From: Mustelus asterias
Lineage: Eukaryota
Direction of reading: 5' to 3'
NCBI RefSeq assembly: GCF_964213995.1
Contig: NW_027590137.1
Location: forward strand, 1,116,001-1,180,000
Length of the DNA: 64,000 nucleotides
The position numbers and the translations under genes are program-made. Below the pieces are notes generated by a model, which saw only the letters and a program-made list of their open reading frames with translations, ran no database searches and was not told the origin of the DNA. Below, piece after piece: positions 36,721 to 45,400 of this stretch. The stretch's first letter is position 1; every line of letters starts with the position of its first letter.

Positions 36721-37780
36721 ACTGATCATCAGTATTGTTAATACTGTAACTAAATAGTTTATTTTCAGTAATCGGGTTATTATATCACACAAGGAGTCCA
36801 TTCAGCAACTCAAGTCCATGCTAACTCTCTGTAGAGCAATCCAGTCAGTCCCATTCCCCCTTAAGTTCATAAGATATAGGAGCATAATTAGGCTATTTGG
36901 CCCATCGAGTCCACTCCGCCATTCAATCATGGCTGATATGTTCCTCATCCCGTCTGTATCCCTGTTCCCCTGCCAGTCTATTTTGACTGCCCATCTAATT
37001 TCATTTTGAAATATTGAATGTATCAAAATGCACCGCCCTCATAGCCAAAAAATTGATATTCAAGAATGTTCACTGTCGAAATAATGTTCTATCTCATAGC
37101 CTTGCTGTACTTCTATTTATTAAACTGGTCCCCGATGTTACATACATTTTACTTCGCTAAGTATATTTAGGTATTTAGACTCGCAGCCTGCATGAAGATA
37201 TCTCAGTGCTGGAGAAGAAGCAGTGAGCATGGATTTGTTGATCAGCATGAATCAACACCTTCAGGAGAATTGGAAGGGTGTATTATACAGACAGCAGAGT
37301 GAGGATACAGGGATAGGGTGTGGGATGGAGATGTACAGATCCAGAGGAACGAGAAAGGAAGAAATGTTCCACAGAAACTAGAATTGTCTATTCTGAATTT
37401 CTGTTTGATACTGACAGTGATGACTTTTGTAAACTCATTTTACAGGAAGTTATAAGGGGAAGATTTGCTGCCAGCAATCTCAAAACATGTTAATGCTTAA
37501 TAGAGTCACTCAAATGATCAGAACCTGAATATCATCAGACCTTGAATCTAGAAGAAGAAATATTTATCTGTTTTTTCTGTCACATCAGTGTGACTGGAAA
37601 GGCACCAAGGAACACAGAGCTGAGTGAGAGTGTCCAGTACACTGACTGTCAAAAGACCAGTGACACAGACTGCAAAAATATCACATCATTTACAGCGGGG
37701 ACAGACAGTGCACATGCTCTATGTGTGGATGAGGATTTAACTGATTGTTAAACCTGGAAAGACACAAGGACATCCACACC

Positions 37781-38995
37781 ATGGAGAAACCGGGGAAAGA
37801 TGAGGATTGTGGTAAGGAATTCCATATCCCGTCTGCACTGCAAACTCATCAACATATTCACACTGGGGACAGACTGTTCCCCTGCATCAAGCGTGGGGAA
37901 GGAGACTGCTCCCCATCTGCCCTGAAGATTCATCAATGCAGCCACACTGGGGAGAGGCCCTTCATCTGCTCTGAGTGTGGGAAGGGTTTTCTCCAGGCAG
38001 CCGACCTGTGGAATCACCAAGCAGTTCACAGTAGGGAGAGGCTGTACACCTGCTCTGAGTGTGGGAAGGGATTCACTCAGTTATCCCACCTGCTGACACA
38101 CCAGCAAATTCACACTGGGGAAAAACCGTTCAACTGCTCTGAGTGTGGGAAGCAATTCAATCATTCATCTGAACTTTTGAATCACCAACAAATCCACACC
38201 GGAGAGCGACCATTCACCTGCTCCGACTGTGGAAAGGGTTTCACTCAGTCATCTCACCTGCAGATACACCAGCGAGCCCACACTAAGGAGAGGCCTTTCA
38301 ACTGCTCTGAGTGCGGGAAGTGTTTTATTCAATTATCACACCTAGTGACTCACCAGGGAGTCCACAGGAGGGAGAGGCCGTTCCCCTGCTCCGAGTGTGG
38401 GAAGCGTTTTATTCAGTTATCACACCTAGTGACACACAAAGGAACCCACACAAGGGAGAGGCCATTCAGCTGCCCCGAATGTGGGAAACGTTTTATCCAA
38501 TCGTCACACCTAATGTCACACCAGGGAGTTCACAGCAGGGAGAGGCCATTCGTCTGCTCCGAGTGTGGGAGGCGTTTTATTCAATCATCCCACCTAGTGT
38601 CACATCAGGAGGTTCACACCAGGGAGAGGCCATTTCCCTGTTCCGAGTGTGGCAGGGGATTCATTCAGTTATCCGACCTGCAGAATCACCAGCAAGTTCA
38701 CACCGGGGAGAGGCCGTTCACCTGCTCTGAGTGTGGGAAGGGATTCACTCGTTCAGCTAACCTGCAGGCACACCGACGTGTTCACACCAGGGAGAGACCA
38801 TTCACCTGCTCTGAGTGTGGGAAAGGATTCGCTCTTTCATCTTATCTGCAGAGTCACCAGCAAGTTCACACTGGAGAGAGGCCGTTTATCTGCTCTGAGT
38901 GTGGAAAGGGATTCATTCAGTCATCCCACCTGCAGACACACCAGCGAGTTCACAAGGATTCACAAAGGGATTCACTCGGTCATCCCACCTGCTGA
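37781..38995 (+). CDS. C2H2 zinc-finger protein B (12 intact plus 2 degenerate fingers)
   Basis: CACCATGGAGAAACCG start; tandem C-x2-C-x12-H-x3-H. Upstream exon ends at 37277, acceptor at 37444-37445. Confidence 0.88.
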   Translation: MEKPGKDEDCGKEFHIPSALQTHQHIHTGDRLFPCIKRGEGDCSPSALKIHQCSHTGERPFICSECGKGFLQAADLWNHQAVHSRERLYTCSECGKGFTQLSHLLTHQQIHTGEKPFNCSECGKQFNHSSELLNHQQIHTGERPFTCSDCGKGFTQSSHLQIHQRAHTKERPFNCSECGKCFIQLSHLVTHQGVHRRERPFPCSECGKRFIQLSHLVTHKGTHTRERPFSCPECGKRFIQSSHLMSHQGVHSRERPFVCSECGRRFIQSSHLVSHQEVHTRERPFPCSECGRGFIQLSDLQNHQQVHTGERPFTCSECGKGFTRSANLQAHRRVHTRERPFTCSECGKGFALSSYLQSHQQVHTGERPFICSECGKGFIQSSHLQTHQRVHKDSQRDSLGHPTC

Positions 38996-39324: not shown

Positions 39325-40104
39325 GGACCCCTAGCAAAACTGGAATCAATGGATATCAAGGGGTAAACTCTCTGCTGGTTGGACTTATACTGGCAATGAG
39401 GAAGATGGTTGTGGTTGTGGAGGGTCAGTCATCTCAGCTCCAGGACATCAATGCAGGGATCTCTCAGGGTCGTGTCCGAGGCCCAACCATCTTCAGCTGC
39501 TTCATCAATAACCTTCCCTCTGTCATAATATCAGAAGTGGGGATGTCCGCCAATGAATACACAATGTTCAGCACCATTTGTGATTCCTCAGATACTGAAG
39601 CAGTCCATGTCCAAATACAACAATATCCAGGCTTGGGCTGACAAGTGGCAAGTAACATTCATGCCACATAAGTCCGAGGCAATGACCATCTCCAACAGGA
39701 GAAGATCTAACCATCACCCCTTGACATTCAAGGGCATTACCATCACTGAATCCCCCTTCCATTATCAACATCCTGGGGGGTTACCATTGACCAGAAACCC
39801 ATAGATACTGTGGCTACCAGAGCAGGTCAGAGACTGGCAGCCCTGAGGAGAGTAACTCACTTTCTGACTCCCCCAGCCAAAGCCCGTCCACCATCTACAT
39901 GACACAAGTCAGGAATGAGATGGAATACTCTCCACTTGCCTGAATGAGTGCAGCTCCCAACAACACTCAAGAAGCTCAAAACCATCCAGGACAAAGCAGC
40001 CCCACTTGATCAACACACTAACCACAAACATTCACTCCCTCTACCACCGACGGACAATAGCAACAGTGTGTACCATCTACAAAATGCACTGCAGGAACTC
40101 ACCA
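39325..40104 (+). mobile_element. Older LINE fragment (host of nested insertions; continues at 43824-43939 and 45401-45590)
   Basis: SQG..GPTIFSCFINNLP RT remnant. Sequence resumes colinearly after each insertion. Confidence 0.6.
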
Positions 40105-43100
40105 TAGACACAAGCTTTAGGAATACAGTTACTCCGAGGATTGAAAACAGATGGGTGACGGTGAGAGGGGCTGGGAGGAAGCAGTCTGTGCAGGGATCCC
40201 CGGTGGTCGTTCCCCTTAGCAACAAGTATTCCGCTTTGGATACGGTTGAGGGGGATGACATACCAGTGGGGAGCCGCAGTGAGAGGATCTCCAGCACTGT
40301 GTCCGTCTCTGTGGCTCGGGAGGGAAAGGGGGAGAGCGGGAGGGCGATAGTTATTGGGGACTCGTTAGTTAGAGGGATAGATAGGAGGTTCTGTGGCAGC
40401 AAAAGAGACTCACGGATGGTATGTTGCCTACCGGATGCCAAGGTCCGTGATGTCTCAGACCGTGTTTTCCAGATTCTGAAGGGGGAGGGGAAACAGTCAC
40501 AAGTCGTGGTGCACATTGGTACCAATGACATAGGTAAGAGAAGGGACGGGGATTTAAAGCAGGAATTTCTGGAGCTGGGCTGGAAGCTGAGAGCCAAGAC
40601 GAAACATGGGGTCATCTCTGGTACGTTGCCGGTACCACGTGATAGCGAGTTGAGGAACAGGGAGAGAGTGCAGTTAAATATGTGGTTGCAGGGATGGTGT
40701 AGGAGGGAGGGTTTCAGATACGTGGATAATTGGAACACGTTCTGGGGAAGGTGGGACCTGTACAAACAGGACGGGGTGCACCTGAACCAGAGGGGCACCA
40801 ATATCCTCGGAGGGAAATTTGTTACGGCTCTTCAGGGGGGTTTAAACTAATTTGTCAGGGGAGTGGGAAAGGGAGTTGTAGTCCAGAAGTCAGTGAGGGT
40901 GGTGAGGTATTGGGGAAGGTATCAGGGTCAAGGGTGGGTACTGGTAGACAGGAAGGTGGGTTGAAGTGTGTCTACTTCAATGCAAGGAGCATCCAGAACA
41001 AGGTCGATGAACTTGGGGCGTGGATTGGTACTTGGGACTACGATGTTGTGGCCATTACGGAGACGTGGGTAGAACAAGGACAGGAATGGTTGTTGGACGT
41101 TCCGGGGTATAGATGTTTCACTAAGTGTAGGGAAGCTGGTAAAAGAGGTGGAGGAGTGGCATTGTTAATCAAGGATAGTTTAACGGCTGCGGAAAGGCAC
41201 TTCGTGGGGGATCTGCACACTGAGGTAATATGGGCTGAAGTTAGAAATAGGAAAGGAGCGGTCACGTTGCTAGGAGTTTACTATAGGCCCCCAAATAGTA
41301 ATAGAGATGTGGAGGAAGAAATTGCTAAGCAGATTATGGATATGTGTGGGGGTCACAGGGTAGTTGTCATGGGGGACTTTAACTTTCCAAATATTGATTG
41401 GAACCTTTGTAGGTCAAATAGTTTGGATGGGGCAGTTTTTGTACAGTGTGTGCGGGAGGGTTTCCTGACACAATATGTGGATGGGCCGACTAGAGGTGAG
41501 GCCACATTGGATTTGGTACTGGGAAATGAACCGGGCCAAGTGTTAGATTTGGTTGTGGGAGAGCAATTTGGAGATAGTGACCACAATTCGGTGTCTTTTG
41601 TTATTGCAATGGAGAGGGATAGGGCCGTACGGCAGGGCAAGGTTTACAATTGGGGGAGGGGTAATTATGATGCGATTAGGCAAGAATTAGGGGGCATAAG
41701 TTGGGAACAGAAACTGTCAGAGAAAGGAACTAATGAAAAGTGGAACTTTTTCAAGGAACAAATACTGGATGTCCTTGATAGGTATGTTCCTGTCAGGCAG
41801 GGAGGAAATGGCCGAGTGAGGGAATCATGGTTCACAAAAGAGGTGGAATGTCTTGTGAAAAGGAAGAGGGAAGCTTATGTAGGGATGAGGAAACAAGGTT
41901 CAGATGGCTCGATTGAGGGTTACAAGTTAGCAAGGAATGAGCTGAAAAAGGGGCTTAGGAGAGCTAGGAGGGGACATGAGAAGTCCTTGGCGGGTCGGAT
42001 CAAGGAAAACCCCAAGGCTTTTTACTCTTATGTGAGGAATAAAAGAATGACCAGGGTGAGGTTAGGGCCGGTCAAGGACAGTAGTGGGAACTTGTGTATG
42101 GAGTCAGTAGAGATAGGCGAGGTGATGAATGAATACTTTTCTTCAGTGTTCACCAAGGAGAGGGGCCATGTTTTTGAGGAAGAGAAGGTGTTACAGGCTA
42201 ATAGGCTGGAGGAAACAGATGTTCGGAGGGAGGATGTCCTGGCAGTTTTGAATAAACTGAAGGTCGATAAGTCCCCTGGGCCTGATGAAATGTATCCTAG
42301 GATTCTGTGGGAGGCAAGGGATGAGATTGCAGAGCCTTTGGCGTTGATCTTTGGGTCCTCGCTGTCCACGGGGATGGTGCCAGAGGACTGGAGAATGGCG
42401 AATGTTGTTCCTCTGTTTAAGAAAGGGAATAGAAATGACCCTGGTAATTATAGACCGGTTAGTCTTACTTCGGTGGTTGGTAAATTGATGGAAAGGGTCC
42501 TTAGGGATGGGATTTACGACCATTTAGAAAGATGCGGATTAATCCGAGATAGTCAGCACGGATTCGTGAAGGGCAAGTCGTGCCTCACAAATTTGATAGA
42601 ATTTTTTGAGGAGGTAACTAAGTGTGTTGATGAAGGTAGGGCAGTTGATGTCATATACATGGATTTTAGTAAGGCGTTTGATAAGGTCCCCCATGGTCGG
42701 CTTATGATGAAAGTGAGGAGGTGTGGGATAGAGGGAAAGTTGGCCGATTGGATAGGTAACTGGCTGTCTGACCGAAGACAGAGGGTGGTGGTCGATGGAA
42801 AATTTTCAGATTGGAGGCAGGTTGCTAGCGGTGTGCCGCAGGGATCAGTGCTTGGTCCTCTGCTCTTTGTGATTTTTATTAATGACTTAGAGGAGGGGGC
42901 TGAAGGGTGGATCAGTAAATTTGCTGATGACACCAAGATTGGTGGAGTAGTGGATGAGGTGGAGGGCTGTTGTAGGCTGCAAAGAGACATAGATAGGATG
43001 CAAAGCTGGGCTGAAAAATGGCAAACGGAGTTTAACCCTGATAAATGTGAGGTGATTCATTTTGGTAGGACAAATTTAAATGTGGATTACAGGGTCAAAG

Positions 43101-43823
43101 GTAGGGTTCTGAAGACTGTGGAGGAACAGAGAGATCTTGGGGTCCATATCCACAGATCTCTAAAGGTTGCCAGTCAAGTGGATAGAGCTGTGAAGAAGGC
43201 CTATAGTGTATTAGCTTTTATTAAGAGGGGGTTGGAGTTTAAGAGCCGTGGGGTTATGCTGCAACTGTACAGGACCTTGGTGAGACCACATTTGGAATAT
43301 TGTGTGCAGTTCTGGTCACCTCACTATAAGAAGGATGTGGAAGCGCTGGAAAGAGTGCAGAGGAGATTTACCAGGATGCTGCCTGGTTTGGAGGGTAGGT
43401 CATATGAGGAAAGGTTGAGGGAGCTAGGGCTGTTCTCTCTGGAGCGGAGGAGGCTGAGGGGAGACTTAATAGAGGTGTATAAAATGATGAAGGGGATAGA
43501 TAGAGTGAACGTTCAAAGACTATTTCCTCGGGTGGATGGAGCTATTACAAGGGGGCATAACTATAGGGTTCGTGGTGGGAGATACAGGACGGATATCAGA
43601 GGTAGGTTCTTTACGCAGAGAGTGGTTGGGGTGTGGAATGGACTGCCTGCAGTGATAGTGGAGTCAGACACTTTAGAAACATTTAAGCGGTTATTGGATA
43701 GGCACATGGAGCACACCAGGATGATAGGGAGTGGGATAGCTTGATCTTGGTTTCAGATAAAGCTCGGCACAACATCGTGGGCCGAAGGGCCTGTTCTGTG
43801 CTGTACTGTTCTATGTTCTATGT
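40105..43823 (+). mobile_element. Young, 5'-truncated CR1 LINE: partial ORF1 (SGNH esterase, stop at 40850) and uninterrupted ORF2 (APE endonuclease + RT, stop at 43744)
   Basis: ORF1 GDS/GTND/DGVHLN; ORF2 [29 protein letters not shown]; (TTCTATG)n tail; TSD TCACCA (40099-40104 and 43824-43829). Confidence 0.95.
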
Positions 43824-43939
43824 TCACCAAGACTCCTTAGGCAGCATCTTACAGACGCAGGACCATTACCATCTAGAAGGACAAGAGCAGCAGATCCATG
43901 AGAGTGTCACCACCTGGAAGTTCCTCTCTAAGTCACTCA

Positions 43940-45400
43940 TGTCAGGAAAACAGAGATAGTTTTAAGTGATCAATGTTTGTGTTGTTAAATATTAAAAATA
44001 GAGTATAGATTTAAGTAAGTTTGATTTAGTGTTTCTGTGTAGGAAGAGTAGAACTTTGGTTGGATTCATGTTGAACAAAGGTGTTTGCATGTGTAGGGGA
44101 TGGGTTTCAATTGAAACTGTATTCCTGTTGTGCTGAGAGAGTTTATGGCGTGAAAAATAAACATGAAGTTGGAGAAATCATGCATTGTTGCACAGCAACC
44201 AGGGACACCTTTAGGGTGAGAAGGTTTTTTGATTGTAGTATTAGTTGAATTTATAGTCTTTGGCAGTGACTTTTAAGGGGCGTCTTGACAAATGCATGAA
44301 GAGGATGGGAATAGAGGGATATGGTCCCCGGAAGGGGAGGGGGTTTTAGTTCAGTCAGGCAGCATGGCCGGTGCAGGTTTGGAGGGCTGAAGGGCCTGTT
44401 CCTGTGCTGTAATTTTCTTTGTTCTTTGTTCTATAGGAGTTTGGGTGAGAAAACGAGAGGGTGAGCAGCTCCCAGCTCTACTAGAAGCAGGAAAGCCATA
44501 CAATGGAGTAATGTGTGCGAAAGCAAGCTCCAGAGGAACCAAAGGACAGTTAGTTTGAGAAACCCGGGAATGGAAAAGAAGCTCCAGGAATATTGAAGAG
44601 AAAAAGAACAGCAGTGTCTTTGGAACAGGATACTATTCATGGAAGTTAAACTCAGACCTGGGAAGAAAAGAACTGATGAGGTTGGCGACAGACAAGCCGC
44701 ATATCTGAACAGTGGGAAGGTTTGAGGTCCTTAAATCCAGATTTTGAAGCAATTGTATTCTGTTACGGACTGATGATCTGAGTTTATGCAGAATTTTGGA
44801 AGGATGTTGCAATTCAAGGCAAAGGAATTCTGAGAGTTAAAAACCTGGAGGCAGCTTCTTGCTAAAAGAGTGGAGAGAAAGCCTTGTTTGAAAGGATAAT
44901 TGGAAGACCTGGAAGTGGATCTTTGTTGAAAGCAATGGAGAGAAACTTGGTTTGGAAGGAGATATTAACACGTGTCTTTCTGAGAGTGGAGTTTGGAAAC
45001 ACTCGTGACAATCATCTGGGGGGAAATTTGAGGAGAAATCCACAGAGGATCGATTGAGTTGCATCTGCCACTTGGTTTCAGAGAGGGGGTTGTCTGATCA
45101 CAGCCAACCTGTGGGTTTAAAGGAACCGTGTGTTTACTGAGAACATTATAGCATAAGGAATTTTAAATCTATGTTATCCTTGAAATCTGTATACATTTGT
45201 GAAGGTAAGTGTGAGTCAAGGAGTATTTTGTTAACGTCAAACTCTTCGTGTTTAATAAATATTTTGTTAAAAGCTAATTGGCAGTCCTGTGACTCTGTTC
45301 CTTTATGTTTTCTACAAAAAGTAAAAGTTGCGGTCTTTTGAGCCAGTGTTCCATCCTGGAATCATCCTGTCCAATTATAACATCAACTGGGATCGTAACA
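43940..45400 (+). mobile_element. Solo LTR containing a CR1 tail insertion (~44263-44432)
   Basis: TGT...ACA termini, 4-bp TSD CTCA (43936-43939 and 45401-45404), AATAAA at ~45254. Confidence 0.75.

Follow-up and report, generated by a model that had tools for sequence, protein, structure and literature searches.

According to the available part of PMC13343379, CR1 is the dominant retrotransposon in most non-mammalian vertebrates; vertebrate canonical CR1 elements with an esterase-encoding ORF1, which that paper also treats, are classed in the available part of PMC4120745 as type IVB, CR1 subgroup 7. The same portion of PMC13343379 does not state how CR1 ORF2 is translated, and frameshifting goes unmentioned in the accessible text of PMC11303007 and PMC3905857. 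Programmed −1 frameshifting is itself a known mechanism. Its novelty in CR1 is provisional: we found no published account of CR1 frameshifting in a search that left most subscription journals and the 1997 CR1 papers outside. The ORFs of CR1 were reportedly described in Haas 1997 and Kajikawa 1997, which may already have noted the site discussed here.

Several described systems offer points of comparison. Among APE-type non-LTR elements, Dictyostelium TRE5-A and TRE3-A require a −1 frameshift for ORF2, as a figure legend in a review states (PMC5911963, available in part). In the arterivirus PRRSV, a linear CCCANCUCC motif ~11 nt downstream of the position of the shift is bound by nsp1beta and PCBP, and the heptamers U_UUA_AAC, G_GGA_AAC and A_AAA_AAC are among the most shift-prone on mammalian ribosomes (both from the accessible part of PMC5009743). 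The same 2016 review, in that part, anticipated natural use of G-quadruplexes in frameshifting and knew of none (PMC5009743). Here, we present comparative evidence that CR1 LINEs with an esterase ORF1 probably express ORF2 by programmed −1 frameshifting at the last codons of ORF1.

The CR1 copy in the window and its ORF1–ORF2 junction

The window is the whole 64,000-nt stretch of Mustelus asterias DNA that we analyzed. It contains a CR1 copy with the following features, listed with the evidence for each.

40099..40104, + strand: left-hand target-site duplication (TCACCA), from sequence; its final 3 nt match the element too
40102..43825, + strand: 5′-truncated CR1 LINE copy, delimited by blastn against L217, a sister copy with full ORF1
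40104..40850, + strand: ORF1 remnant with the SGNH esterase domain intact, ending G-L-N-stop (Pfam, PDB 4c1b)
40838..40844, + strand: overlapping heptamer G_GGU_UUA, not required (5/9 family representatives)
40841..40847, + strand: slippery heptamer U_UUA_AAC, at which the −1 shift probably takes place (genome junctions, 9/9 family representatives)
40841..40960, + strand: linker of 40 codons in the −1 frame, with no ATG and poorly conserved sequence (from sequence)
40848..40850, + strand: ORF1 stop TAA, adjoining the heptamer and read as Leu in the −1 frame (149/163 junctions)
40858..40868, + strand: G-rich motif GGGGnnnGGGA at +11..+21, candidate stimulator (from conservation)
40961..43744, + strand: main part of ORF2, with the APE endonuclease starting at LKCVYFN and the reverse transcriptase (RT) (Pfam Exo_endo_phos and RVT_1; L1 EN and ExoIII matches)
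about 42425-43144, + strand: reverse transcriptase part of ORF2 (Pfam RVT_1)
43809..43825, + strand: 3′ tail made up of short TTCTATG repeats and lacking poly(A) (from sequence)
43824..43829, + strand: right copy of the target-site duplication TCACCA (from sequence)

The window copy aligns with L217 over 3724 nt at 99.3% identity (blastn), and we assign it to a young, shark-type CR1 family. The encoded ORF1 matches Pfam Lipase_GDSL_2 (E=2e-11) and the ORF1-encoded esterase of PDB 4c1b (E=3.6e-26), and its nearest named relatives come from sharks and rays. About 60 ORF1 codons are missing, including the start codon and the Cys-rich N-terminus; in intact sister copies ORF1 is 308 aa long from Met and the Cys-rich motif is present. 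Because the window copy lacks an ORF1 start codon, the junction signal described below is a property of the family and no evidence for translation of this particular copy. With a Cys-rich/SGNH ORF1 (the Cys motif being seen in sisters), an APE-RT ORF2, a repeat tail and a target-site duplication, the element fits the canonical esterase-ORF1 CR1 group, and its junction, compared by eye, resembles consensus sequences named CR1 in the available part of PMC13343379. The host site of the insertion is an older repeat.

ORF1 ends, in frame, with CAG GGG GGT TTA AAC TAA. As an earlier note on this DNA had claimed, two overlapping X_XXY_YYZ heptamers, at 40838-40844 and 40841-40847, both lie in ORF1 phase ahead of the stop, and ORF2 occupies the −1 frame and is open across the site. 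From 40730 to 43744 that frame has no stop, giving 1004 aa between stops, and Pfam recognizes an APE endonuclease and an RT in it. The G-rich tract that the note placed ~10 nt downstream begins at 40858, 10 nt 3′ of the heptamer. The 5′ truncation of the copy goes unmentioned in the note. Phased X_XXY_YYZ heptamers have a chance rate of 16/4950 ORF1 codons, or ~4% per stretch of 14 codons. The lone TTTAAACTAR match in the window is within chance (24/100 shuffles); what carries weight is where it lies, its phase and its conservation.

The sole ATG of the −1 frame between 40730 and 41340 lies at position 41336, 165 codons past the shift-site Phe. By alignment with the L1 endonuclease, it falls ~125 residues into the endonuclease, beyond the first strand and the match to L1 Glu43, which we take to be a catalytic residue. 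Initiation at this first AUG would cost the ORF2 protein those ~125 endonuclease residues.

From these features we infer a ribosome shift, its efficiency and its fusion product. Translation would mostly end at UAA, yielding ORF1p (308 aa in intact sisters); a minority of ribosomes, their P site holding UUA and their A site AAC, would move one base back to UUU AAA. The shifted ribosomes would decode the stop as CUA (Leu) and pass through the 40-residue linker into ORF2, yielding a predicted esterase-EN-RT fusion of ~1270 aa that would resemble retroviral Gag-Pol. The G-run at +11..+20 would at that moment sit just outside the ribosome entry channel, where it could be bound by protein.

The junction compared across CR1 and L2 elements

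A first look at the genome yielded 1540 candidates for the junction DNA, in keeping with a young family. The best 30 copies among these 1540 candidates, the window's included, are identical over 40830-40879, a result biased towards identity by the choice of best matches. We called junctions using ORF1 proteins as queries together with an ORF1 model lacking the last six residues, which gave 169 junctions and, after removal of identical contexts, 163, with 57 of the 163 coming from the window's own young family. TTTAAAC is present in 156/163 junctions; it is in ORF1 phase as called in 151, and the stop adjoins it in 149. ORF2 lies in the −1 frame in 123 junctions, in +1 in 19 and in 0 in 16, and was not found in 5. 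The 163 junctions fall into 13 clusters at 85% identity, and all these counts are uncorrected for relatedness; among the nine clusters with at least three members, −1 is the most frequent frame in eight and is tied in one decayed cluster. The heptamer and the frame relationship, whose conservation the earlier note had marked for checking, are both kept in most junctions.

Representatives of nine clusters were picked for an open −1 linker, a choice that itself guarantees this openness. Linker length among them ranges over 111-186 nt, and the representatives are 58-84% identical in pairwise comparison. All nine carry T TTA AAC, although in the same ORF1s TTA supplies 13% of Leu codons and AAC 32% of Asn codons. 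The stop after the heptamer differs among families, being TAA, TAG or TGA. The earlier note had put forward both heptamers as candidates, and the comparison separates them: U_UUA_AAC occurs in 9/9 representatives, and G_GGU_UUA, present in just 5/9, was rejected as the shift site.

An endonuclease is readable in 158 junctions, in the −1 frame in 123 and in another frame in 35. We attribute the 35 to decay and to changes in G-run length; in the one family checked, G-run length accounts for the departures. The mutable G-run of that family, in 39 copies, comprises 10 G in 19 copies, 13 in 5, 11 in 4, 12 in 4, 9 in 2, 15 in 2 and 14 in 1, with 2 copies otherwise changed. A spreading in-frame fusion variant was also considered and rejected: it amounts to a single copy (L088/L227), and two 896-aa frames proved to be ordinary −1 copies. 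A 1472-nt contig, from a run guessed to be RNA, is colinear over the junction and gapless; such a contig can neither show expression nor exclude minor splicing.

More distant elements come from a scan of metagenome contigs with a mid-esterase pattern, blind to the junction, which returned 39 loci with 16 readable junctions. The other 23 loci were excluded before counting because they were truncated ahead of the junction, were broken or had matched by chance; among them, L150 ends T-L-N-stop without a heptamer and has an overlong ORF1 tail and an endonuclease in pieces, and the L136 sequence ends within the expected site. All six CR1-type junctions contain a phased heptamer within the last 15 codons: U_UUA_AAC in L128 and L159, G_GGA_AAC in L151 and L163, and A_AAA_AAC in L152 and L164. 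In 5/5 CR1-type elements with a visible endonuclease, ORF2 takes the −1 frame and is open starting at the site, and L152 and L164 have a stop in the −1 frame just upstream of the heptamer. The heptamer of L152, L159 and L164 lies 10-11 codons ahead of the ORF1 stop. These swaps among three canonical heptamers, with the −1 frame kept, are the strongest comparative evidence for the proposed shift.

L2-type esterase elements in the same scan are built differently. A heptamer is found in 1/10, versus 6/6 for the CR1 type (Fisher p=0.0009, with rows that are not independent), and UGA-C stands at the ORF1 end in 10/10, two pairs among these ten being near-copies. Their ORF2 is in frame and stop-free in 9/9 readable cases, six of them without a Met ahead of the catalytic Asn. 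The ORF1 of one such element, L140, matches PDB 4c1b with E=1.5e-35, and an endonuclease tree of 22 rows, with no named references, splits the CR1 type from the L2 type in 100/100. The L2 layout points to a second, putative route to the same ORF1–ORF2 fusion, by UGA-C readthrough.

A motif-directed search of a published consensus library (the available part of PMC13343379), covering the first 400 nt per row, gave 30 motif matches; 19 of them lie at an ORF1 end by eye, which speaks to presence and not to frequency. These 19 consensus sequences come from sharks, rays, chimaera, coelacanth, bowfin, halosaur, bullfrog, bearded dragon, alligator and crocodile. Viral contigs yielded nothing useful, and GTDB genomes gave no match in one search and 8 apparent chance matches in another.

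The earlier note had proposed an ORF1–ORF2 fusion made by a −1 shift at U_UUA_AAC, and every comparative test is consistent with it: conservation, phase, a −1 relationship that stays constant while the linkers vary, the lack of synonymous variants, and heptamer swaps in distant CR1s. Judged by these sequence comparisons, the CR1 junction is a real, conserved recoding junction.

The G-rich motif as candidate stimulator

The stimulator is the weakest step of the frameshift explanation. All nine representatives have invariant G at +11-14 and +18-20, forming a fixed-spacing GGGGnnnGGG at +11..+20; this pattern occurs elsewhere 4 times in 8060 nt of ORF2, and stands at the exact +11..+20 place in 124/156 heptamer junctions. 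The Gly codons that it forms in the −1 frame are fixed as GGG, a codon that accounts for 32% of ORF2 Gly codons. The alligator and crocodile consensus in the available part of the library shows equal G-motif spacing, and the G-run of L128, L151 and L163 ends at +16. The motif is not universal: L152, L159, L164 and some published shark families, for example SquAca_CR1-17a, lack it or have it displaced.

Folding of the downstream sequence, a check that the earlier note had named, gave no hairpin beyond shuffles in the window (z of -0.4 to +0.2 for the region 3′ of the heptamer, pseudoknots being outside the folding method). Among 14 heptamer sites folded in CR1-type elements, z fell below -2 in L159 alone (z=-2.3). 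We rejected a coronavirus-type stem 5-9 nt after the heptamer, with z near 0 in the window and most representatives. A two-tier G-quadruplex is predicted in 4/9 representatives, the window's family not among them, with z no lower than -1.75, and we did not adopt it as an explanation for the family. A search for long-range complements of the G motif in 8 elements found no common downstream partner, and the one best match clearly above shuffles is located upstream.

By judgement, we favor over the alternatives a linear G-run at fixed +11..+20 that would be bound by protein, as a working candidate in which our confidence is limited. A two-tier G-quadruplex is a lesser possibility, and pausing at the adjacent stop alone ranks below it.

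Alternative explanations and comparison with known systems

The alternative that survives best, though we consider it improbable, is that ribosomes terminate at the ORF1 stop and then reinitiate at a linker codon other than AUG (AUG in some lineages), which would produce a free ORF2p. Reinitiation or coupling is the described route in L1 and SART1 (PMC5972666; PMC5009743; both available in part), and the −1 linker of the window family holds four near-cognate codons. The earlier note's claim that no AUG precedes the endonuclease stands for the window family and 8/9 representatives, and fails for one genome family and two metagenome elements. An in-frame AUG ahead of the catalytic Asn is present in 9/9 open copies of that genome family, in some copies of three other families, and in L159 as well as L163; in all of these, reinitiation may occur. 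Three lineages carry an AUG close to where the endonuclease begins. SART1-type UAAUG coupling was rejected, with no overlapping stop and start and no ORF2-frame ATG before 41336. UGGGA, the calicivirus TURBS core, often lies inside the G motif; TURBS, however, works upstream of the stop (PMC5972666, available part), whereas the UGGGA here is downstream, on the wrong side, AGGG(A/G) replaces it in 2/9 representatives and no AUG adjoins the stop, and we rejected this form of reinitiation as well. More generally, reinitiation needs neither a fixed inter-ORF frame nor a stop-free linker from the heptamer on, and calls for neither fixed Leu-Asn codons nor swaps among three slippery heptamers; the placement of the heptamer 10-11 codons before the stop in L152, L159 and L164 likewise argues against it.

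It is very unlikely that the conserved bases instead serve the ORF1 C-terminal LN, or a DNA or RNA signal such as a promoter or splice site, with ORF2 expressed from a separate or spliced RNA. LN is indeed the commonest C-terminus, and the preceding helix is conserved. Close ORF1 homologs end in xLN in 33/56 cases, most others looking like fragments, and a profile search for distant relatives returned 201 proteins with 127 scorable tails, 120 of them distinct: 70 end in LN, 10 in GN (as QGN or AGN), and 5 have KN at the helix end. The endings of the remaining ~30% of ORF1 tails differ, and some of those tails are L2-type or broken. Named proteins ending in LN come from Erythrolamprus, Anolis, Zootoca, Varanus, Macrochelys, Chrysemys and Hirundo (a snake, lizards, turtles and a swallow). 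The residue ahead of LN takes 12 forms, and in 69/70 tails it can be encoded by a T-ending codon; K, E, Q, M and W make up 19% at the six preceding positions, against which 69/70 gives a binomial p=8e-6, uncorrected for kinship. A constraint on the protein would permit synonymous codons, yet none are present; L2-type esterases lack LN, and the GN and KN variants match heptamers in the DNA. A separate RNA would still require a start codon, which is absent in the window family.

Least probable of all is polymerase or reverse-transcriptase slippage in the G-run that puts some of the RNAs back in frame, a reading in line with the one family of mutable G-run length (39 copies) but opposed by the location of the run 3′ of the ORF1 stop, where a length change cannot bypass that stop, and by the occurrence of the heptamer without any run longer than 3-4 in most families.

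If programmed −1 frameshifting at the ORF1 end is correct, vertebrate genomes would have been using a slippery site of the coronavirus type for a very long time and in many copies, and the esterase would lie at the N-terminus of CR1 ORF2p, changing both annotation and the design of retrotransposition assays. The structure-free cassette would also provide a natural test of protein- or G-quadruplex-stimulated frameshifting. A broader picture, which we offer tentatively and hold to be doubtful as a whole, is that esterase-ORF1 LINEs use two recoding routes, the CR1 −1 shift and L2 UGA-C readthrough, and that the trigger of the vertebrate CR1 shift is a protein acting at the fixed +11 G-run, either a host factor that binds it or ORF1p itself, or else a G-quadruplex formed there. 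CR1 would then represent an ancient genomic counterpart of the arterivirus transactivated shift, present in thousands of copies per genome.

Compared with known systems, the element resembles canonical CR1 in its Cys-rich and SGNH esterase ORF1, APE-RT ORF2, non-poly(A) repeat tail and frequent 5′ truncation. It shares with mammalian L1 and silkworm SART1 a bicistronic LINE RNA and an expected low ORF2 output; those elements differ in using termination-reinitiation or UAAUG coupling to make a separate ORF2p (accessible parts of PMC5972666 and PMC5009743). Dictyostelium TRE5-A and TRE3-A provide a LINE precedent for a −1 shift, in a different host group and with a different ORF1. Zebrafish ZfL2-1 and L2-clade LINEs have the same esterase ORF1 (PDB 4c1b) and apparently also reach ORF2 via a fusion. 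Unlike CR1, they carry ORF2 in frame behind UGA-C. Stop-codon suppression is said to have been proposed for ZfL2-1 by Kajikawa et al. in 2012 (Gene 499:41).

Like the coronavirus U_UUA_AAC site and retroviral Gag-Pol, the CR1 junction combines a phased X_XXY_YYZ heptamer at the ORF1 end, a −1 overlap and an AUG-less polymerase ORF. It differs from canonical −1 shift systems in having no predicted hairpin 5-9 nt downstream and, in its place, a linear G-run at +11; since CR1 encodes no protease, the fusion may also stay uncut. The likeness to PRRSV, in which a short homopolymer-rich linear motif acts at a fixed ~11 nt with no RNA structure, is one of spacing only; the CR1 motif differs in being G-rich, and protein binding to it is a candidate mechanism by analogy with the arterivirus.

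Genomic surroundings of the element

The CR1 copy sits inside a decayed repeat of greater age that bears a reverse transcriptase (RT) and resumes beyond the target-site duplication. A zinc-finger frame on the same strand precedes the element by about 1.1 kb.
Window 39340-40100 and 43826-43940, on both sides of the CR1 copy: older decayed RT-bearing repeat
Window 37745-38995 (+): tandem C2H2 zinc-finger open frame, 416 aa

A CR1 family with a mutable G-run

In one young CR1 family of the Mustelus asterias genome (L082-L101, L225-L244), a pure G-run with a modal length of 10 closely follows the ORF1 stop, and an AUG lies 20 codons into the linker. The run varies from 9 to 15 among copies, and these length changes often break the -1 frame. 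One natural copy, L088/L227 (1 of 39 in its family), joins ORF1 and ORF2 in a single 1280-aa frame.
G000:C71:6614869-6615783 and onward (-): fused-frame copy L088/L227, stop lost, G-run 11 long

Candidate stimulators, candidate shift sites and annotated proteins

Distant CR1s may use different stimulators, since downstream of the heptamer the metagenome locus L164 carries a C-rich tract at about +16 in place of the G-run, and L159 a hairpin (z=-2.3). In five elements (L217, L219, L220, L222, L223), a pyrimidine-rich stretch of ORF1 that precedes the heptamer by about 650 nt repeatedly ranked as one of the better complements to the G motif; the energies of this pairing did not exceed those of shuffles.

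At the protein level, distant ORF1s end in FFR, GFL, KDF or FLQ/FFQ (P0127, P0149, P0150, P0156, P0144, P0165), tails that could be encoded by candidate shift sites U_UUU_UUN, G_GGU_UUU or G_GAU_UUU. Two database proteins, P0025 and P0050, span both the esterase and the endonuclease, with F-K-L between them; as gene models or mutated copies, they are annotation artefacts of the CR1 ORF1-ORF2 junction. Several others (P0006, P0027) are CR1 ORF1 mislabelled as host or bacterial genes.

In-frame junctions of L2-type elements

Ten L2-type esterase LINEs (L130, L132, L133, L134, L140, L144, L148, L153, L161, L162) end ORF1 with a single UGA-C, followed by ORF2 in the same frame (readable in nine). 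The stop reads UGA CAA in six loci and UGA CUAG in L161, both readthrough-prone contexts. Stop suppression has reportedly been proposed for the zebrafish L2-clade element ZfL2-1, and the UGA-C layout probably reflects the same mechanism.
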